IMG/VR virus record: IMGVR_UViG_3300042892_004166
Coordinates: 79,097-117,442 of that record
Length of the DNA: 38,346 bases
Strand: one strand, 5' to 3'
Source: a virus
Taxonomy: Duplodnaviria; Heunggongvirae; Uroviricota; Caudoviricetes
Position 1 is the first letter of the stretch. Each line of letters begins with the position of its first letter. The notes beneath the pieces were generated by a model. That model searched no databases. It was not told the DNA's origin and was given only the letters and a program-made list of their open reading frames with translations. The position numbers and the translations under genes were made by a program. Of the stretch, positions 16,443 to 26,672 are shown piece after piece.

Positions 16443-16742
16443 ATGAATTTAGTATTTCAAGGTACCATTGATATTCCAGGCGGAACTCAAATAAATTGCG
16501 CCTACGATAGCATGATAATTTCTCTTCTAGTTATCAATAATATAACCGCGAGTTACAATCTTACAGTTAGCCGACTTGATACTGCTGCAGGGGCTATTGA
16601 AACGCTTCTTTACAAGTTTATCTTAAATGATGGAGATTCAGTTAGAGATGTTACTCAATATAAATTTGCAAAAGGTGATTATATTCACCTAGAATCTACA
16701 CAACCCAATACCACATACTACATATCAGCCGAAGTTTCATGA
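16443..16742 (+). CDS. small beta-rich protein, probable virion/fibre-associated
   Basis: AATATATA motif upstream (16418-16425); ATGA coupling to the giant collagen gene. Confidence 0.6.
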   Translation: MNLVFQGTIDIPGGTQINCAYDSMIISLLVINNITASYNLTVSRLDTAAGAIETLLYKFILNDGDSVRDVTQYKFAKGDYIHLESTQPNTTYYISAEVS

Positions 16743-19700
16743 ACATACAAAGACTAGATAAATATGGAAATTCCAGCACAGACCTAGGTCCGGTATTCGT
16801 CCATGACAAATATGGTTCACTAAAAAATCTAGGTGGAACTGTTGACACAGGACCTCAAGGTCCTCAAGGGCCAGCTAATGGTCCTCAGGGTTTCCAAGGT
16901 GCTCAAGGCTTCCAAGGAACTGGTGCTCAAGGATTTCAAGGTGCTCAAGGAATACAAGGTGCCCAAGGTAGACAAGGTGCTCAAGGTTTCCAAGGCGCCC
17001 AAGGTTTTCAAGGTGCCCAAGGTTTTCAAGGTGCCCAAGGAATACAAGGAGCCCAAGGATTTCAAGGTGCTCAAGGTTTCCAAGGCGCCCAGGGAATACA
17101 AGGAGCCCAAGGTTTCCAAGGTGCCCAAGGTTTTCAAGGTGCTCAGGGAATACAAGGAGCCCAAGGAATACAAGGTGCCCAGGGAATACAAGGAGCCCAA
17201 GGTTTCCAAGGTGCCCAAGGTTTTCAAGGTGCTCAGGGAATACAAGGAGCCCAAGGATTTCAAGGTGCTCAAGGATTTCAAGGCGCCCAGGGAATACAAG
17301 GAGCCCAAGGATTTCAAGGTGCTCAGGGAATACAAGGAGCCCAAGGAATACAAGGTTTTCAAGGTGCTCAAGGTTTTCAAGGAGCCCAAGGTTTCCAAGG
17401 TGCCCAAGGTTTTCAAGGTGCTCAGGGAATACAAGGTGCTCAAGGAATACAAGGTGCTCAAGGATTTCAAGGCGCCCAGGGAATACAAGGTGCCCAAGGT
17501 TTTCAAGGTGCTCAGGGAATACAAGGTTTTCAAGGAGCCCAAGGTTTTCAAGGAGCCCAAGGATTACAAGGTGCTCAGGGAATACAAGGAGCTCAGGGAA
17601 TACAAGGAGCCCAAGGTTTCCAAGGTGCTCAGGGAATACAAGGAGCCCAAGGTTTTCAAGGTTTTCAAGGTGCCCAAGGTTTTCAAGGTTTTCAAGGTGC
17701 CCAAGGTTTTCAAGGTGCCCAAGGTTTTCAAGGTGCCCAAGGTTTCCAAGGTGCTCAGGGAATACAAGGAGCCCAAGGATTTCAAGGTTTTCAAGGTGCC
17801 CAAGGTTTTCAAGGTGCCCAAGGATTTCAAGGTTTTCAAGGTGCCCAAGGTTTTCAAGGTGCCCAAGGAATACAAGGAGCCCAAGGATTTCAAGGTTTTC
17901 AAGGTGCCCAAGGTTTTCAAGGTGCCCAAGGTTTCCAAGGTGCTCAGGGAATACAAGGAGCTCAAGGTTTTCAAGGTGACCAAGGTCCATTAGGCGTTTC
18001 ATCCGGACAGATATACTATTTTAATCAATCAGTAACACAGACACCTTTAGAATATAAACAAATAGGTACATTACCAACCACTGGATCGGTTCAAACTATT
18101 ACAGTAACAACTACTGGAACAACTCCAGTATTAGTTCAAACATATATTACTGATGCAAGTGGATTAGGAGTTAATGTTATTCCACCAGGACCTCAAAAAT
18201 TTCATTTACATTTCTTAAAAGGAGCAACTGGTTTTAATACAGATACATTCTGTACTATACAACTAGCAGATAGTACCGGTACACCATACGCAGCAGCGCC
18301 AATATCAACAAATCAAGTACTTATAGGTTGGATTGAATCCACTATACCAGTTGAAAATTACGTAGATTTAGTAATACCTGCATCATATCAAATTGATCCT
18401 ACGGATAGAATGATTGTTAATGTCTATGTAGTCGATCAATCTTCAGGTAATCATCCTGTTACTTTTTATACAGAAGGTAGTCAATACTATTCTTATGTTG
18501 TAACATCATTAGGTATTGAAGGAACTCAAGGAGTACAAGGTTTCCAAGGTGCTCAAGGAATACAAGGTGCTCAAGGAATACAAGGAGCCCAAGGTTTTCA
18601 AGGTGCTCAAGGAATACAAGGAGCCCAAGGTTTCCAAGGTGTTCAAGGTTTTCAAGGTGCACAAGGTTTTCAAGGTGCTCAAGGTTTTCAAGGTGCTCAA
18701 GGAATACAAGGAGCACAAGGTTTTCAAGGTGCTCAAGGAATACAAGGTGCCCAAGGAATACAAGGTGCTCAGGGAATCCAAGGTGCTCAAGGAATCCAAG
18801 GTGCTCAAGGAATCCAAGGTGCTCAAGGAATCCAAGGTGCTCAAGGAATCCAAGGAGCTCAAGGAATACAAGGTGCCCAGGGAATACAAGGTGCTCAAGG
18901 TTTCCAAGGTGCCCAAGGAATACAAGGTGCCCAGGGAATACAAGGTGCTCAAGGAATCCAAGGTGCTCAAGGAATACAAGGTGCTCAAGGAATACAAGGT
19001 GCTCAAGGTTTCCAAGGTGCCCAAGGAATCCAAGGTGCCCAAGGTTTCCAAGGTGCCCAGGGAATACAAGGTGCCCAGGGAATACAAGGTGCCCAAGGAA
19101 TCCAAGGTGCCCAAGGTTTCCAAGGTGCTCAAGGTTTCCAAGGTGCCCAAGGTTTCCAAGGTGCTCAAGGAATACAAGGTGCTCAAGGAATACAAGGTGC
19201 TCAAGGAATACAAGGTGCCCAAGGAATCCAAGGTGCCCAAGGAATCCAAGGTTTCCAAGGTGCCCAAGGTTTCCAAGGTGCTCAAGGAGTACAAGGTTTC
19301 CAAGGTGCTCAAGGTTTCCAAGGTGCTCAAGGTTTCCAAGGTGCTCAAGGTGCCCAAGGAATACAAGGTGCTCAAGGTTTCCAAGGTGCTCAAGGTGCTC
19401 AAGGAATACAAGGTGCTCAAGGAATACAAGGTGCCCAAGGAATCCAAGGTGCCCAAGGAATACAAGGAGCCCAAGGTTTTCAAGGTGCTCAGGGAATACA
19501 AGGAGCCCAAGGTTTCCAAGGAGCCCAAGGTAGACAAGGTGCCCAAGGTTTTCAAGGTTTTCAAGGTGCTCAAGGCTTCCAAGGTGCTCAAGGAATACAA
19601 GGAGCCCAAGGTTTTCAAGGTGCTCAAGGAATACAAGGAGCTCAAGGCTTCCAAGGTGCTCAAGGAATACAAGGAGCCCAAGGTTTTCAAGGTGCCCAGG

Positions 19701-22700
19701 GAATACAAGGAGCCCAAGGTTTTCAAGGTGCCCAAGGAATACAAGGTGCCCAAGGTTTTCAAGGTTTTCAAGGTGCTCAAGGCTTCCAAGGTGCTCAGGG
19801 AATACAAGGAGCCCAAGGTTTTCAAGGTGCTCAAGGAATACAAGGAGCACAAGGTTTTCAAGGTGCTCAAGGTTTTCAAGGTGCTCAAGGAATACAAGGA
19901 GCACAAGGTAGACAAGGAGCACAAGGTTTTCAAGGTGCTCAAGGAATACAAGGTGCTCAAGGTTTCCAAGGTGCCCAAGGTTTTCAAGGTGCTCAAGGTT
20001 TTCAAGGAGCTCAAGGAATACAAGGAGCCCAAGGTTTTCAAGGTGCTCAGGGAATACAAGGAGCCCAAGGTTTTCAAGGTGCTCAGGGAATACAAGGAGC
20101 CCAAGGTTTTCAAGGTGCTCAGGGAATACAAGGAGCCCAAGGTTTCCAAGGTGCTCAAGGCTTCCAAGGAATTAGAGGAGTAGCAAATTGGACACCTGTT
20201 TTTAATGGTGGCACAGTATATGGTGCAAATTCAAATATATTTCATAAAGCAATAGGTAACGATGATATTTTTGATGCTGAAGTATATTCATTAGAGGGTT
20301 ATACTAGAGGATGTTATGTATCGGCTCAACCACAATCAAATCTTAATTATATACTATTTGGTTTAAGTGATAATCCTTCTGCATCGCCTAGTTTTCCAGG
20401 TATTAATTATGCATGGTATGTCACTGAATACAATAGTGTAGAAATCTATGAAAGTGGAGGTGTAATAGTTGCTTTAGGTGCATATACATCAGATACTATT
20501 TTACAAATAACATATGATGGTTATAATGTAAGATATTGGAAAGATGGTATTCTACAACGAACTGTTGCAAGGGCAATAGGTAACGCTCTATATTTTGATT
20601 CTACTTTCTTCCGTACAATATCATATACTAATGGTACACCTAATGGTTTAAAGAATGTTGTTTTTGGACCAATGGGAGAACAAGGACCACAAGGAGCCCA
20701 AGGTTTCCAAGGTTTTCAAGGTGCTCAAGGAATACAAGGAGCCCAAGGTTTCCAAGGAGCCCAAGGAATACAAGGAGCCCAAGGTTTTCAAGGTGCCCAA
20801 GGTAGACAAGGAGCCCAAGGTTTCCAAGGTGCTCAGGGAATACAAGGTTTCCAAGGTGCCCAAGGAATACAAGGAGCCCAAGGAATACAAGGAGCCCAAG
20901 GTTTCCAAGGTGCTCAAGGTTTCCAAGGAGCTCAAGGTTTCCAAGGTGCTCAAGGAATACAAGGTGCCCAAGGTTTTCAAGGTGCTCAGGGAATACAAGG
21001 TGCTCAGGGAATACAAGGAGCCCAAGGTTTCCAAGGTTTTCAAGGTGCTCAAGGAATACAAGGAGCCCAAGGTTTCCAAGGTGTTCAAGGTTTTCAAGGT
21101 GCTCAGGGAATACAAGGAGCCCAAGGTTTTCAAGGTGCCCAAGGATTTCAAGGTGCTCAGGGAATACAAGGAGCCCAAGGAATACAAGGAGCCCAAGGTT
21201 TCCAAGGTGCCCAAGGAATACAAGGTGCTCAAGGTTTCCAAGGTGCCCAAGGTTTCCAAGGTGCCCAAGGAATACAAGGAGCCCAAGGTTTCCAAGGTGC
21301 CCAAGGTTTCCAAGGAGCTCAAGGTAGACAAGGAGCCCAAGGTTTCCAAGGAGCCCAAGGAATACAAGGAGCCCAGGGTTTTCAAGGTTTCCAAGGAGCC
21401 CAAGGAATACAAGGTGCTCAAGGTTTCCAAGGTGCCCAAGGTTTCCAAGGAGCTCAAGGTAGACAAGGAGCCCAAGGTTTCCAAGGTGCTCAAGGTTTCC
21501 AAGGAGCCCAAGGTTTCCAAGGCGCTCAAGGTTTCCAAGGACCTGGATTTACAACAATAACAAACCCATCAGATAATAGAGTTTTAACTTCAGATGGTGG
21601 TACAAATACTGCTAATGCTGAAGCTAATTTAACATTTAATGGAACTGACCTAGTTAATGGAGCTGGTTCTATTATAGCACTTGGAATTGATAATTTTAAA
21701 CAAAACGGAACATTAACAAATAAGGTAATAACAAGTGATACGACACAAGTAGCTCAAACACCAATATCACCTTATTTATGGCATGACTTATTTGCATTTT
21801 CTAGGTTTTCACCAACATTTTCAACTTCATCTAATAATGTAACATATAATGCAGCAACGCTTAATAAAGAAGTATTTGCGCAAAAAGAAAATCAAACAAT
21901 CGAAGTTGCTGATGGAGTTACAGTAACTTCTGTAAGATGGAATTGGACAGGAATGGAGTGGTCAATAGGAGAATGGTTAGTTATTGGTTCAACTTATACA
22001 GCTACAGCACCAATAAAAAATGTTGTATATGAAACTTCTGCAGATAATATAAATTGGATAGTAAGACATACTTCGACAAATAATCATAATGCAATCGCTG
22101 CGTGGTTTTATGTTAATTGGTATGGCGGAGATGCATATTCTCGTTTAACACTTACAGCTACAACTCCGGCTCCAATTCGGATTTCGTCAATTAAACTTTT
22201 AAGTGCAAGATGGGGTGATCAAGGACTAGGTAGCGAAATTGAAAAACCGTTTACTTGGGATGGTGACAAAAACATTACAACAGGAGCAAAACTTAAAATT
22301 ACAACTGTTCCAGCCGGAACAACAACCGATATTCTTGTAAAAGAAAGTGATGGGACTGTTGGTTTTAGGAGTAGTATTGCACTCGGAGGAGCCCAAGGTT
22401 TCCAAGGTGCTCAAGGTTTCCAAGGTGCTCAAGGAATACAAGGTGCTCAAGGTTTCCAAGGTGCTCAGGGAATACAAGGAGCCCAAGGTTTCCAAGGTTT
22501 TAGAGGTTCATCAAATTGGACACCATTATTCAATGGCGGAGTAACTTATGCAGAAAATTCAAATACTTTCTATAAAGCAACAGGTAATGATGCTCAATGG
22601 GATGGACAAGTATATTCTTTAGAAGGATATACTAGAGGAGCTTATGTATCAACTCAATTAAGTAATACTGGTGAACAACTTATGGTTGGATTAAATAGCG

Positions 22701-23830
22701 ATCCAACAGCCAATAGTAGTTATACTAGTATCGATTATTGTTGGTACTGCGCAGCAGGTGATCTTTATATAATTGAAAATGGAAGTGTCACTGTTGATAT
22801 TAATGGAGATGCAATAACTTATGGAGGAACTTTCGCAAATACCGTATTAAGTATAACATATGATGGTTATAATATAAGATATTGGAAAGATGGAGTAGTA
22901 CAAAGAACTGTATCAAGAGTAATTGGAGCTCCATTGTATCTTGATTCTAGTCTTTATTACGTATCATCAACCAAAAAGTTAATAAATTTGGTTTTTGGAC
23001 CGATGGGAGAAAAAGGGACAATTGGTAAAGGAAATTTGCCAGTGCCATCAATTAAGTTAGGTGATCCTATAGTAATTAATTCCATTAATATGGTAACTAA
23101 TTCCGCCGGAAGCGTATTAACATTAGATTCTGCACCATACGCAATTACACAAGATTTGTCATCGGAAGTATTTAATGTATATGATAATATATATATAGAA
23201 ATGGTTCTTTATAGAAAGAAAAATAAGAAACCAAATTATCGTCCAGGTGGAGGTTATATAGTACCGGCGCCATGGTACCCTAATGGAAGTTTTCCATATC
23301 CTGCATGGGGAAATAACTATTGGAACCGATCTGGAAATCATCAGAATAATATCACAACCGGGTTTATAGGAGTTGATAGACCTAATCATTTTGAAGTAAC
23401 AGGTCATAACCAATATATAAATTTAGCTCCGATGATTTCAGGAAGATGGCAAGAGTTTTTAGTAAAGTATCGTGATCAATCAGGACAGGACGCTGACTAT
23501 TATACTTATGTACCATCGGCAAATAAGCGTTCCCAGAAGAATCTGCCTACATCTAGATTTGCATATTCTCCAGTTTATATTCCTATGTATGTTGCATTTA
23601 GATATGTTGCTTGGGATGGAAATGCAGGTCCAATTAATCCTGTCACGGGTTTACATTATGGTGAAATTGTTTCCGGACCATTAAGTAGAGTTATTAAAAT
23701 TATACATCATAAAGCGCCTTTCATGTTAGATTATGCCGCAAGTGCATTATATGGTAATCCATGTGCATTTATTAATCCGCTACATGTGCCAACTGTATTA
23801 AAATGTATGTTTGAAACTCACTTACCATAA
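16739..23830 (+). CDS. giant collagen-like fibre protein (2363 aa) with four Gly-X-Gln runs and lectin-like knob domains
   Basis: About 1270 aa of (G-F/I-Q-G-A-Q)n; two copies of the NWTP.F.GG...TYDGYN.RYWKDG...VFGPMGE module; additional unique globular domains. Confidence 0.85.
16850..17995 (+). repeat. collagen-coding 9/18-nt tandem repeat, run 1 (~127 triplets)
   Basis: (GGN TTY/ATH CAA GGN GCN CAR)n. Confidence 0.95.
18512..20179 (+). repeat. collagen-coding tandem repeat, run 2 (~185 triplets)
   Basis: Same unit, apparently uninterrupted Gly periodicity. Confidence 0.95.
20666..21547 (+). repeat. collagen-coding tandem repeat, run 3 (~98 triplets)
   Basis: Same unit. Confidence 0.95.
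22388..22507 (+). repeat. collagen-coding tandem repeat, run 4 (~13 triplets)
   Basis: Same unit. Confidence 0.9.
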
Positions 23831-23837
23831 TATAAGT

Positions 23838-23941
23838 CGGAGGATAGGGAGGTAGAAGTCCGTTCTTGTTCCTTTGGGAACATAGTTGTTCGTAACTGTT
23901 CCTTCGGGAAAAATGATGTTCGTATCCCTCCCTATCCTCCG
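23838..23941 (+). ncRNA. multibranch structured RNA-like element (15-bp closing stem, 4-5 small hairpins, three UUCG loops)
   Basis: CGGAGGATAGGGAGG / CCTCCCTATCCTCCG perfect inverted repeat enclosing TGTTCC-TTTG-GGAACA, AGTTG-TTCG-TAACT, TTCC-TTCG-GGAA and GATG-TTCG-TATC, plus a weaker AGAA-GTCCG-TTCT. Followed by GTCTTTTT. Independent ncRNA versus cis element is unresolved. Confidence 0.65.
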
Positions 23942-23969
23942 GTCTTTTTAAAAATAATAAAAATAAACA

Positions 23970-26672
23970 ATGGCACATTACCCATACGTCGGATTAACAC
24001 AAGGTTTTCAAGGATATCAAGGATATCAAGGATATCAAGGATATCAAGGAGTACGAGGTTTCCAAGGTTTCCAAGGAGTACGAGGTTTCCAAGGTTTCCA
24101 AGGAGTACAAGGTTTCCAAGGGTTTAGAGGTACTTCAAATTGGACGCCATTATTTAGCGGTGGTGTTACTTACGGTGAAAATTCAAATGCTTTTTATAAA
24201 GCAGCAGGTAATGCCGGTCAATGGGATGGACAAGTATATTCTGCGGAAGGATATGCTAGAGGATGTTATATGTCAACTCAATTAACAACTACTATAGGAC
24301 TTGCTTTAATGGTTGGATTAAATAGTGATCCAACACTTAATTCTTCATACACATCTATTGATTATGCATGGTTTATAAATGAAAACATTTTGTATATCTA
24401 TGAAAGTAATGTATTCATTAATCCATCTTCTACATTTACAACAGATACTATAGTATCAATTACATACGATGGTTATAATATAAGATATTTGAAAGATGGT
24501 GTAACTATAAGAATTGTACCAAGAGCAATTGGAGCTCCATTGTATCTTGATTCTAGTTTTGCTAATGTATCATCGATAAATGGACTAAAGAATTGTGTTT
24601 TTGGACCTATGGGAGAACAAGGTGCGCCAAGTGTATCAACTCTAGCTCCTATTCCTTCGGTAGCAACGGCATCTAATGCAACTGGTGCTACATTAATAAG
24701 TGGTACTTTAACCTTGCAACCAGCTACAACCGCTTTTGGAGGAGTAATTACAATAAATAACCAACAATTTTCAGGACTAAAAAACTTTACGGATAATATT
24801 ATAGTAAATACAATTACTATATGGAGAGGTGGTAATAATGCCGCTACTAATATAGGAATTGGTTTAAATACATTACTCGATAACACGGGAAATCAAAATA
24901 CAGTACTCGGATATCAAGCAGTATCTCAAACACCAACTGGAAGTAGTTTCACTACAGCTATTGGGCATCAATCTTTAAAGATTGTTACAGGAAATAACAA
25001 TACTGCCATTGGAAATTTATCAGGCTCGCTTATTATAAGTGGGTCTCAAAACACTTTTATTGGTTCAGAGGCAGGAGGTATTGTTGGGCAGTTAGCTAAT
25101 GTTACTAATAGTGTAGCTATAGGATACCAGGCAATTACAACTAAAAATAATCAAATTGTTTTAGGTACTTCAAGTACCGTTGAAACTGTATTACATGGAA
25201 GTATTAAATTAGATACAGGCCATTATTTTAGAAGAATAGTACTTCCTTACCCTGGAATTGGAAACGATGCCGGAAGTGGTAGATGGTTTGTAAGATTATA
25301 CAATACTTCGGCTGGCGCCGCTTTTGCAGGAGGTAGAATCCGAGTAGGAGGTGATTGGAACTGGGCACCTATTATGGGAGTTCTTGAAATAGAATTCGGT
25401 ATTTATACATCACTCGGCGCAACTTCAATAAATTCAGGACAAACGCGACTATCCGCAGCAGTAGCGTCAGCTGCGGATTACTTAAGAATAGGTAATATAG
25501 AGGTAGTAGGAGGTTGGGTAGGAGTATATATATGGGCTTCAAATTCAAGTACTCCATATGTTTTATTTGATATGTATTCAACAGTTGTACCAAGTTTTAC
25601 ATCAATTGCATGGGCAGCAAATCCCTTACCTGCGAAGAGAAGTACAGAAATTATTGGAGATATTTCCGCAACAACCTTTATAGGAGCCTTAACAGGTACA
25701 GCAACTAATGCAACTAATGCAGATACTGTTGATAATTACCATGCATCTACATCAACATTAGGAAATTATATTGTTGTAAGAGATGGTAATGGATATATTA
25801 ATGGTAACTATATAAATATGTCTGATGATGGCAATCCAGGAAGTGGAACATCAATTAGTTCATTTATTACTAAACAAGGAGATAATTATTATCGTTCAGT
25901 ATCTCCTACAAATGCGATGATTTCTATAAAAAGCGTTGCATCAGGAGATTGGGGTATTAATATTACAGGAAACTCTGCTACGGCTACAACTTCGGGACTA
26001 CTAACTGGAGAGGATAATAGGACAATTTCACCAAGTGAATCAACAGCAAACAGACTTAAGTTTGGATTCACTTCTTGGGCAAACAATAATACTGGACCTT
26101 ATGCAGATTTCATACATCTGAGATCATATCAAGACTCTTCAGGAGGAAATGATAACCTAGTAATGTTCAGAAAAGATGCAATAGGAATGCGTATCTGGCA
26201 ACAGACATGGGGATCTGCAACAGCATATTCTTCATTTAAAGATGTAGCATTTACAGGAGTAGGAACAGCTAATTATTTATCAAAATACACAGATGGATAT
26301 AGTTTAGCAAATAGTCAAATTTACGATAATGGGACAGGTGTAGGTATAGGAAATACAAACCCAAATGGATACAAACTAAATGTAACTGGAGCAGGGTACT
26401 TTTCAACAAATGTTACATCTCCTGGATTCTTTAATACATCTGATGCTAGGTTAAAAGATATTATTGAAAGAGATGGAGATACTATTAAATTTACCTGGAA
26501 GGATGGACGAGATACTAAGATACATATAGGATATGTTGCACAAGAAGTTCAAGAAACATATCCTGACCAGGTTAATAAAGGTGATGATGGAATGCTTACA
26601 ATAAATTACATTGAAGTCCTGGTTGCAAAGATACAAGAATTGGAGAACAGAATAAAACAATTAGAGAAATAA
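23970..26672 (+). CDS. tail fibre/spike with short collagen run, lectin-like knob, beta-helix/adhesin repeats and C-terminal Peptidase_S74 intramolecular chaperone
   Basis: Third NWTP..VFGPMGE module; N.AIG..SL repeats (NTVLGYQA, TTAIGHQSL, NTAIGNLSG, NTFIGSEAG); C-terminus TSDARLKD...GYVAQEVQ..YPD.V...INYIE...IQELE. Confidence 0.85.
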   Translation: MAHYPYVGLTQGFQGYQGYQGYQGYQGVRGFQGFQGVRGFQGFQGVQGFQGFRGTSNWTPLFSGGVTYGENSNAFYKAAGNAGQWDGQVYSAEGYARGCYMSTQLTTTIGLALMVGLNSDPTLNSSYTSIDYAWFINENILYIYESNVFINPSSTFTTDTIVSITYDGYNIRYLKDGVTIRIVPRAIGAPLYLDSSFANVSSINGLKNCVFGPMGEQGAPSVSTLAPIPSVATASNATGATLISGTLTLQPATTAFGGVITINNQQFSGLKNFTDNIIVNTITIWRGGNNAATNIGIGLNTLLDNTGNQNTVLGYQAVSQTPTGSSFTTAIGHQSLKIVTGNNNTAIGNLSGSLIISGSQNTFIGSEAGGIVGQLANVTNSVAIGYQAITTKNNQIVLGTSSTVETVLHGSIKLDTGHYFRRIVLPYPGIGNDAGSGRWFVRLYNTSAGAAFAGGRIRVGGDWNWAPIMGVLEIEFGIYTSLGATSINSGQTRLSAAVASAADYLRIGNIEVVGGWVGVYIWASNSSTPYVLFDMYSTVVPSFTSIAWAANPLPAKRSTEIIGDISATTFIGALTGTATNATNADTVDNYHASTSTLGNYIVVRDGNGYINGNYINMSDDGNPGSGTSISSFITKQGDNYYRSVSPTNAMISIKSVASGDWGINITGNSATATTSGLLTGEDNRTISPSESTANRLKFGFTSWANNNTGPYADFIHLRSYQDSSGGNDNLVMFRKDAIGMRIWQQTWGSATAYSSFKDVAFTGVGTANYLSKYTDGYSLANSQIYDNGTGVGIGNTNPNGYKLNVTGAGYFSTNVTSPGFFNTSDARLKDIIERDGDTIKFTWKDGRDTKIHIGYVAQEVQETYPDQVNKGDDGMLTINYIEVLVAKIQELENRIKQLEK

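Follow-up and report, generated by a model that had tools for sequence, protein, structure and literature searches.

Between two genes for collagen-like fibre proteins of an uncultured T4-type phage lies a short intergenic sequence that has the appearance of a branched RNA, raising the questions of whether the structure is real, at which level and on which strand it acts, and what it could do for the genes on either side. The element is 104 nt long, spans positions 23838–23941 of the 38,346-nt stretch of DNA analysed here (the window), and begins 7 nt past the stop codon of a 2363-aa collagen-like fibre ORF (16739–23830, on the + strand, as are all the features of the locus given below). The last ~250 residues of this ORF, ending in ...THLP*, form a conserved C-terminal domain (23075–23830 with the stop codon). 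The element is closed by a stem, P1, whose two arms show perfect complementarity over 15 bp with a GC content of 67%, the 5′ arm (CGGAGGATAGGGAGG) being located at 23838–23852 and the 3′ arm (CCTCCCTATCCTCCG) at 23927–23941. The 74-nt interior is made up of 2.5 tandem 30-nt units (23853–82, 23883–912 and 23913–26) and contains, in order, the motif copy M1 (GUCCGU, 23858–23863), the hairpin H1 with 6 bp and a C(UUUG)G loop (23867–23882), the motif copy M2 (GUUCGU, 23888–23893, 30 nt after M1), the hairpin H2 with 4 bp and a C(UUCG)G tetraloop (23899–23910), and the motif copy M3 (GUUCGU, 23918–23923, 30 nt after M2). C(UUCG)G is an extra-stable tetraloop. A run of five T residues (23945–23949) follows 3 nt past P1 in a terminator-like geometry, and the next ATG, 28 nt beyond P1, belongs to the downstream fibre gene (23970–26672), which encodes collagen repeats, a knob and a Peptidase_S74 chaperone, and has the conserved N-terminus MAHYP.

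A preliminary description, made from the letters of the window, had proposed a multibranch RNA more elaborate than a terminator needs to be. Read against the sequence, all of its coordinates hold, including the P1 arms, the 7-nt offset, the T tract and the distance to the ATG, and its five hairpins are present, one with a TTTG loop (23867–23882), three with TTCG loops (23884–23897, 23899–23910 and 23915–23926) and a weaker one at 23854–23866. The 30-nt tandem duplication that it placed at 23867–23896 and 23897–23926 matches at 24 of 30 positions, and requires amendment only in that the repeat comprises 2.5 units rather than two.

The phage record containing the window (G000) is 234,467 bp long, 77% complete and 34% GC, and is identified as a T4-type phage by a gp23 capsid match of 142 bits. 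The element is single-copy in this record, and P1 is its sole GC-rich perfect inverted repeat of at least 11 bp. A further long inverted repeat, with an 18-bp AT-rich stem and a spacer likewise of 74 nt, is found outside the window at G000:C1:189070–189179, and is not matched by the covariance model of the element.

Searches of known sequences and families gave no relatives of the element. The best match in Rfam release 15 was mir-483, with a score of 24.4 bits (E = 0.12) where the gathering threshold is 60, and the elements of five relatives gave no Rfam match; blastn of the region against GenBank phages found nothing, and ARAGORN detected no tRNA or tmRNA genes over the window. In IMG/VR, the exact 15-mer arm produced only single-arm chance matches, the pattern TCCCTANTTTTTTCTGA returned only two contigs that were already known, and the pattern AGGATAGGG..CCCTATCCT retrieved an unrelated high-GC family that scores ~22 bits with the covariance model. 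Some 27 high-GC (60–70%) viral contigs among L035–L065 (for example L036:2890–3050 and L044:6860–7020) have a 70–80-nt CG-alternating core between inverted arrays of the 9-mer GGGAGGATA. At the two of these loci that were examined, a D5_N/DUF5906 primase-helicase gene lies directly upstream of the array, which therefore looks like an iteron-type origin. The P1 arm of the window (GGAGGATAGGGAGG) amounts to 1.6 copies of the same 9-mer, a likeness that is treated as chance because the covariance model gives those loci only ~22 bits.

Since neither the GenBank phages nor Rfam held anything similar, homologous loci were sought through the upstream protein, using its last 250 residues (the conserved domain, alignment A1) as the query. 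This search recovered four proteins and then, through metagenome and IMG/VR scans, eight further loci; in a library of 1.84 billion proteins the domain is present in 204 clusters (50% identity) and is C-terminal in nearly all of them. Neither Pfam nor PHROGs provides a name for the domain, and an AlphaFold2 prediction of the domain from five sequences was unusable, with a mean pLDDT of 43.7. The DNA 3′ of the stop codon was read in 17 distinct contigs from independent assemblies (the window, L021–L031, L125, L126, L128, L130 and L132), a set that leaves aside the near-duplicates L122 and L123 (of L023) and L124 (of L027). All 17, with domain homologues down to ~29% identity, bear a closing stem and tandem hairpin units after the stop codon. 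The stem is 9–20 bp long, starts 3–40 nt past the stop codon, and in every case encloses a structured, tandemly repeated interior of 60–110 nt. This recurrence in independent assemblies excludes an assembly artefact. Three further contigs, known from gene calls only, have a gap of 150–160 nt at the same place, and a fourth has a gap of ~410 nt.

The order P1, M1, H1, M2, H2, M3, P1′ is retained in 13 of the 17 elements (the 11 that were aligned, L125 and L130), whilst the four distant members keep only the closing stem and the tandem hairpin units. Among these, L031 carries three hairpins and repeats a word other than the family motif; the motif copies of L126 are degenerate; in L128 they are spaced 29 and 59 nt apart, one unit having apparently become a long hairpin; and L132 comprises 2.7 units of 38 nt each. 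In L132 (4471–4601) the closing stem reaches 20 bp and the repeated word, GAACGAAC, is the family motif reverse-complemented, as would follow from an inversion of the interior between the arms.

The element is strictly linked to the C-terminal domain of the upstream gene, the downstream fibre gene being a usual but not obligatory neighbour. The closest relative, L024 (63% identity), keeps an intact element in front of unrelated genes, namely a 96-aa ORF behind a TATAAATA box followed by a lysozyme-like gene, and loci that have only the domain of the downstream protein in common with the window lack the element.

Conservation of the structure was assessed in a structure-blind MAFFT alignment of 11 sequences (A2) over three helices, P1 and the two capped hairpins. 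Standard pairs make up 83.9% of the helix positions, compared to 65.1 ± 1.9% in shuffles, and 21 of the 25 pairs change on both sides. None of 500 shuffles attains any of five covariation measures, and all six slid registers score below the true one. P1 is 93% paired, with 10 of its 13 pairs varying on both sides and the remaining three, a GGG/CCC core, invariant (the 5′ arm retains AGGG throughout; on the 3′ arm the T and the A flanking the CCC are nearly invariant); five of six pairs vary on both sides in H1 and all six do so in H2. The homologous regions thus retain the structure with covariation, so that the preliminary description withstands the refuting condition it had set, and the element is very probably a real, conserved RNA structure. 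The preliminary description had drawn its own evidence of selected pairing from a compensatory T-A to A-T change between two hairpins (GTTG-TTCG-TAAC and GATG-TTCG-TATC). This swap is present, but the hairpins concerned, which surround the motifs, average 2.85 bp across the family against 2.96 bp in shuffled flanks and so show no excess pairing; the covariation that holds up resides in P1 and the capped hairpins.

Several properties of the helices distinguish the two strands. There are 15 G.U pairs against 6 A.C; the + strand is the more stable in 10 of 12 elements, by a mean of 5.9 kcal/mol (Wilcoxon p = 0.009); and the covariance model R1 scores the window element at 102 bits on the + strand against 55 on the − strand, and that of G001, the other genome record searched, at 99 against 31. 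C(UNCG)G loops occur 11 times on the + strand and four times on the − strand of the 17 elements, where shuffles give 1.4 expected and a maximum of 6 in 1000, and the hairpin caps read as UNCG on the + strand only. Taken together, the G.U excess, the stability of the + strand, the strand preference of the covariance model and the bias in C(UNCG)G point to an element that acts as an RNA of the coding strand, although this evidence concerns the helices and says nothing on the motifs themselves.

The window sequence is predicted to fold very stably, with a minimum free energy of −48.5 kcal/mol compared to −26.2 ± 3.2 for dinucleotide shuffles (z = −7.1), and none of 200 shuffles is as good. Because its tandem units can pair with each other, the thermodynamic optimum at −48.5 is a rod in which unit 1 is paired with unit 2, and the five-hairpin multibranch form originally proposed lies 4.3 kcal/mol above it, at −44.2. 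In members whose two hairpins are unlike, the rod is impossible and the minimum free energy structure includes the local hairpins. As these relatives can form only the branched fold, it is the branched fold that is conserved in the family, even though it is not the optimum for the window.

The capped hairpins are separated and flanked by a single-stranded motif with the family consensus (G/A)A(A/C)GUUC(A/G)U. In the 33 copies found in 11 elements, the core positions are G in 97%, U in 88%, C in 94% and U in 85%, and the 17 elements together contain GTTC 34 times, where 7.8 are expected and the shuffle maximum is 21. At the motif sites the sequence is conserved and the pairing is not, and pairing between the motif and the start region of the upstream gene shows no conservation. 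The G-to-G spacing of the motifs is 30–32 nt in all 11 aligned elements and 31/31 in the distant L130, and is held while the intervening hairpin stems vary from 4 to 9 bp. The apices of H1 and H2 follow CC-U(A/U)(C/U)G-GG at a fixed offset, their caps being mostly of the UNCG type (UUCG, UACG). Units resemble each other more within an element (100% identity in L024, 91% in L030, 87% in L022 and 80% in L026) than between elements, where the maximum is 70%. Since the units are homogenised yet the layout stays at about 2.5 units, with L128 and L132 as the exceptions, slippage or conversion must have occurred repeatedly while selection maintained their number. The identity of the three motifs, their constant spacing and the repeated re-homogenisation of units whose number does not change all point to specific recognition rather than mere stability.

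What function this architecture serves can be approached from its position and composition. The reading preferred here, to which an even chance is given, is that of a cis-acting 3′-end element, which would terminate transcription in most members and in all of them cap the mRNA against nucleases. It would act on the late fibre transcript, where P1 and the U run would bring most transcripts of most members to an end and the compact, very stable fold would halt 3′ exonucleases. The long upstream mRNA would thereby be stabilised and read-through to the next fibre gene restricted, which would fix the proportions of the fibre subunits. In this scheme, the three evenly spaced motifs would be sites for an oligomeric RNA-binding factor that tunes the mRNA end, which is the simplest inference because a plain terminator or stabiliser leaves three motif copies at 30–32-nt spacing unexplained. 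Two further observations sit uneasily with a 3′-end role: the same spacing corresponds to three turns of B-DNA and would also fit a DNA-binding protein, and L132 has the reverse complement of the motif.

The element resembles an intrinsic terminator in having a GC-rich stem followed by a U run at a gene end, and 10 of the 17 elements have a run of at least four T residues no more than 8 nt from P1. In a six-member sub-clade this run belongs to an A-tract/T-tract extension of the stem, the A tract pairing with the U tract as in bidirectional terminators. The element differs in that intrinsic terminators have loops of 3–8 nt, in place of a structured and conserved interior of 60–90 nt (74 nt in the window) that carries a repeated motif, and in that a convincing U run is absent from 7 of the 17 distinct elements; termination can therefore not be its universal role. 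After P1, L027 and its near-duplicate L124, as well as L125, have A runs, L024, L021, L028 and L130 have mixed sequence, and L132 has nothing resembling a U run past its closing stem. A consensus terminator scan did not call P1 a terminator.

Stable intercistronic stem-loops have long been assigned the role of blocking 3′ exonucleases. REP/BIME elements and the 3′ stem-loops of T7 RNase III sites are such intercistronic stable structures, which protect the upstream message and set the relative expression of neighbouring genes, and by analogy the element most likely works in the same way; REP elements, in contrast, are multi-copy, and there is no sequence likeness. A second parallel is found in T4 itself, whose mRNA is where the CUUCGG hairpin was first discovered (Tuerk et al. 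1988, via PMC4371310). There, too, C-G-closed UNCG loops occur in non-coding mRNA stretches of a T4-type phage; the T4 hairpins are small and single, whereas the element has two within a larger junction, along with a long closing helix, three motifs and attachment to one gene family. In its working it would most resemble an intrinsic terminator or a 3′ stabiliser, built up into a conserved junction that is absent from Rfam, and there is a modest chance of its being a new sort of protein-binding RNA. Of the functions first suggested (small RNA, protein-binding scaffold, attenuator or stabiliser), the stabiliser/terminator and the scaffold remain the best candidates, and the structure is, as was claimed, more elaborate than a terminator needs to be.

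In the sub-clade and in L027, the stretch from the stop codon to P1 contains AT-rich promoter-like boxes, so the element could instead lie at the start of a transcript. In this alternative, which is possible but unlikely, a discrete trans-acting small RNA of ~105–125 nt, made from its own promoter-like box or cut from the late mRNA, would use its three GUUCRU sites to bind or titrate an oligomeric protein; it might, for instance, be a decoy for a host endoribonuclease, as are the tandem-repeat mimics of type III antitoxins. The layout of 2.5 tandem units of 30–32 nt followed by a terminator-like stem is consistent with such an RNA, which P1 and the U run would close. ATATATA or TATAAATA boxes immediately 5′ of P1 are seen in 8 members, and GATATATA/ATATATAA is the enriched promoter-like motif of the genome; across the whole of G000 its two forms are present upstream of 24 and 33 ORFs, where 1.0 and 1.8 would be expected, and in most cases they begin 23–35 nt ahead of the ATG. 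The window itself, however, has only a weakly matching box ahead of P1 (TAATATAA), and transcription starting ~6 nt past this box would truncate P1.

The closest models for an RNA of this kind are the type III antitoxins ToxI and antiQ and the phage pseudo-ToxI, which are non-coding, slippage-prone tandem repeats of 1.5–5.5 units that end in a terminator and are bound by an oligomeric protein, ToxIN being a 3:3 assembly (PMC3475682). These repeats slip and expand, and the homogenisation of units within the elements is what slippage would be expected to produce. The element has 2.5 units of 30–32 nt (38 nt in L132), where ToxI-like RNAs have direct repeats of ~34–45 nt. The units of the element differ in being plain hairpins, with ~9 nt per unit conserved, as opposed to the whole conserved pseudoknot of the antitoxins and their mimics (PMC3475682), and in being enclosed in a long stem and deeply conserved beside a structural gene. 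No ToxN/AbiQ-type endoribonuclease gene lies beside the element, whose neighbours are fibre genes, and a type III antitoxin locus as such is therefore rejected. An arms-race decoy should moreover be patchy, which is not what is seen in the strict and deep tie to one fibre domain in 17 divergent phages.

Rather unlikely, too, is that the element serves as the 5′ leader of the downstream M-A-H-Y-P fibre gene, an attenuator in which P1 and the U run would terminate conditionally, with read-through decided by a motif-bound factor or by an alternative pairing. Precedents for such a mechanism are HutP and TRAP, each an oligomeric protein that controls a terminator by recognising short repeats in triplicate or in larger number. 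A gene with the N-terminus M(A/G/S)HYP is located downstream in 10 of 17 elements, with variant N-termini in L021 (MGHQY), L128 (MGSYP) and L130 (MGNHP), and in the sub-clade a GAUGAA 5′ of P1 can pair with UUCAUC of the motif whilst overlapping the A-tract half of the terminator stem. This pairing would be just 5–6 bp long, GAUGAA is absent from the window and its closest relatives, and L024 has the element without the downstream gene; the lack of a U run in seven distinct elements weighs against a conditional terminator as it does against a universal one.

A doubtful proposal that goes beyond termination is that of a factor-binding RNA, with three equivalent GUUCRU sites between stable hairpins, in which the message for a trimeric fibre would end and which would have persisted for long because it is bound by an oligomeric, possibly trimeric, protein; the partner could be the fibre's own co-inherited C-terminal domain, or the RNA could be released as a stable small RNA with the same role. 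If the C-terminal domain were the partner, the registration or the dosage of fibre chains would be coupled to their own message.

Because the motif spacing of 30–32 nt equals three turns of DNA, a DNA-level function is kept as a minor rival. It would consist of three direct repeats on one face of the helix, surrounded by an inverted repeat and bound by a protein of the phage, for instance at a site of replication or recombination. In its favour are the linear spacing, held while hairpin stems range from 4 to 9 bp, the reverse-complemented motif of L132, as though the interior had flipped between the arms, and the occurrence in other phages of iteron-like inverted arrays that share the 9-mer of the P1 arm and adjoin primase-helicase genes. 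Such a role is improbable, since the G.U excess, the UNCG caps and the stability bias of the + strand are RNA features for which double-stranded DNA cannot select, the covariance model strongly favours the + strand, the hairpin apex keeps a fixed offset, which suggests that a single RNA unit evolved by substitution alone, and no replication gene is nearby. The last and least probable explanation, already disfavoured, is that of a slippage-prone tandem repeat trapped in a terminator loop and carried passively with no function beyond that of a simple hairpin, as the recent duplication of units in several members and the ease with which loop arrays arise by slippage might suggest, but the count is constant (three motifs and two hairpins) in 13 of 17 elements with only the four distant ones departing from it, the motif and the hairpin apex are conserved where proteins are only 35–63% identical, and hairpin stems covary where neutral sequence would have decayed.

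Some known classes of element were considered and discarded. The promoter-terminator cassettes termed PeSLs (PMC2839356, PMC4122927) are likewise small composite intergenic stem-loop sequences of T4-type phages located at points of module exchange, but they are multi-copy, occupy hyperplastic early regions and combine an early promoter with a simple stem-loop, whereas the present element is branched, belongs to a late fibre cluster and has one copy each in G000 and G001. A MITE or BOX-like repeat is rejected on the same single-copy ground, the arm pattern matching only unrelated high-GC loci elsewhere, and the target-site hairpin of a diversity-generating retroelement (DGR) on the lack of any RVT_1 match in G000 (a 77% complete record; controls were positive). 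Translational bypass in the style of gene 60 is incompatible with L024, which lacks the downstream gene, and with L021, which lacks a landing codon; the gap would also be 125–170 nt, and P1 begins well past the take-off codon.

The junction between the two fibre genes has its own regularity. Upstream proteins end in CCA-TAA (...(L)P*; 23822–23830 in the window), the next gene begins M-(A/G/S)-H-Y-P (23970–23984), and an in-frame CCA is codon 5 of that gene in the window and in several relatives (L022, L026, L028 and L029). From the sequences, this conservation is probably at the protein level, reflecting two fibre ends that join, and not recoding.

To our knowledge, structured RNAs of phages are poorly catalogued, and elaborate RNA control is not usually expected in the late structural operons of T4-type phages. 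The element is a covariation-supported motif outside Rfam that is strictly tied to a fibre domain of 204 protein clusters from environmental phages. If it has a partner, it would offer a new handle on how a phage balances or assembles multi-subunit fibres, and the RNA would in itself be a compact and very stable natural scaffold. A model of the element would also improve annotation, because gene callers place spurious ORFs over it. In public gene calls, a start codon (L021:1826–2890) or a 38-aa ORF (L122:3344–3460) falls inside the RNA element; the true downstream start in L021 is the ATG at 1901 (MGHQY...).

Other features of these genomes were noted alongside the element. The gene starts of the window (for example 1675, 11344, 23970 and 28451) have A-rich leaders and lack Shine-Dalgarno sequences. 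Translation in the host therefore probably starts without Shine-Dalgarno pairing, and the host may be one of the Bacteroidota. The word (G)ATATATAA is ~20-fold enriched upstream of ORFs across G000, and in the window occurs for example upstream of 10436 and 32606; the phage probably uses it as its late promoter. Also enriched in G000 is ATATTTACATATC, which may mark a further class of promoter. A gene matching PARG_cat_microb, a microbial poly(ADP-ribose) glycohydrolase-like family, is located a few genes upstream of the fibre gene in L122 (228–971) and in the contig of P0004.
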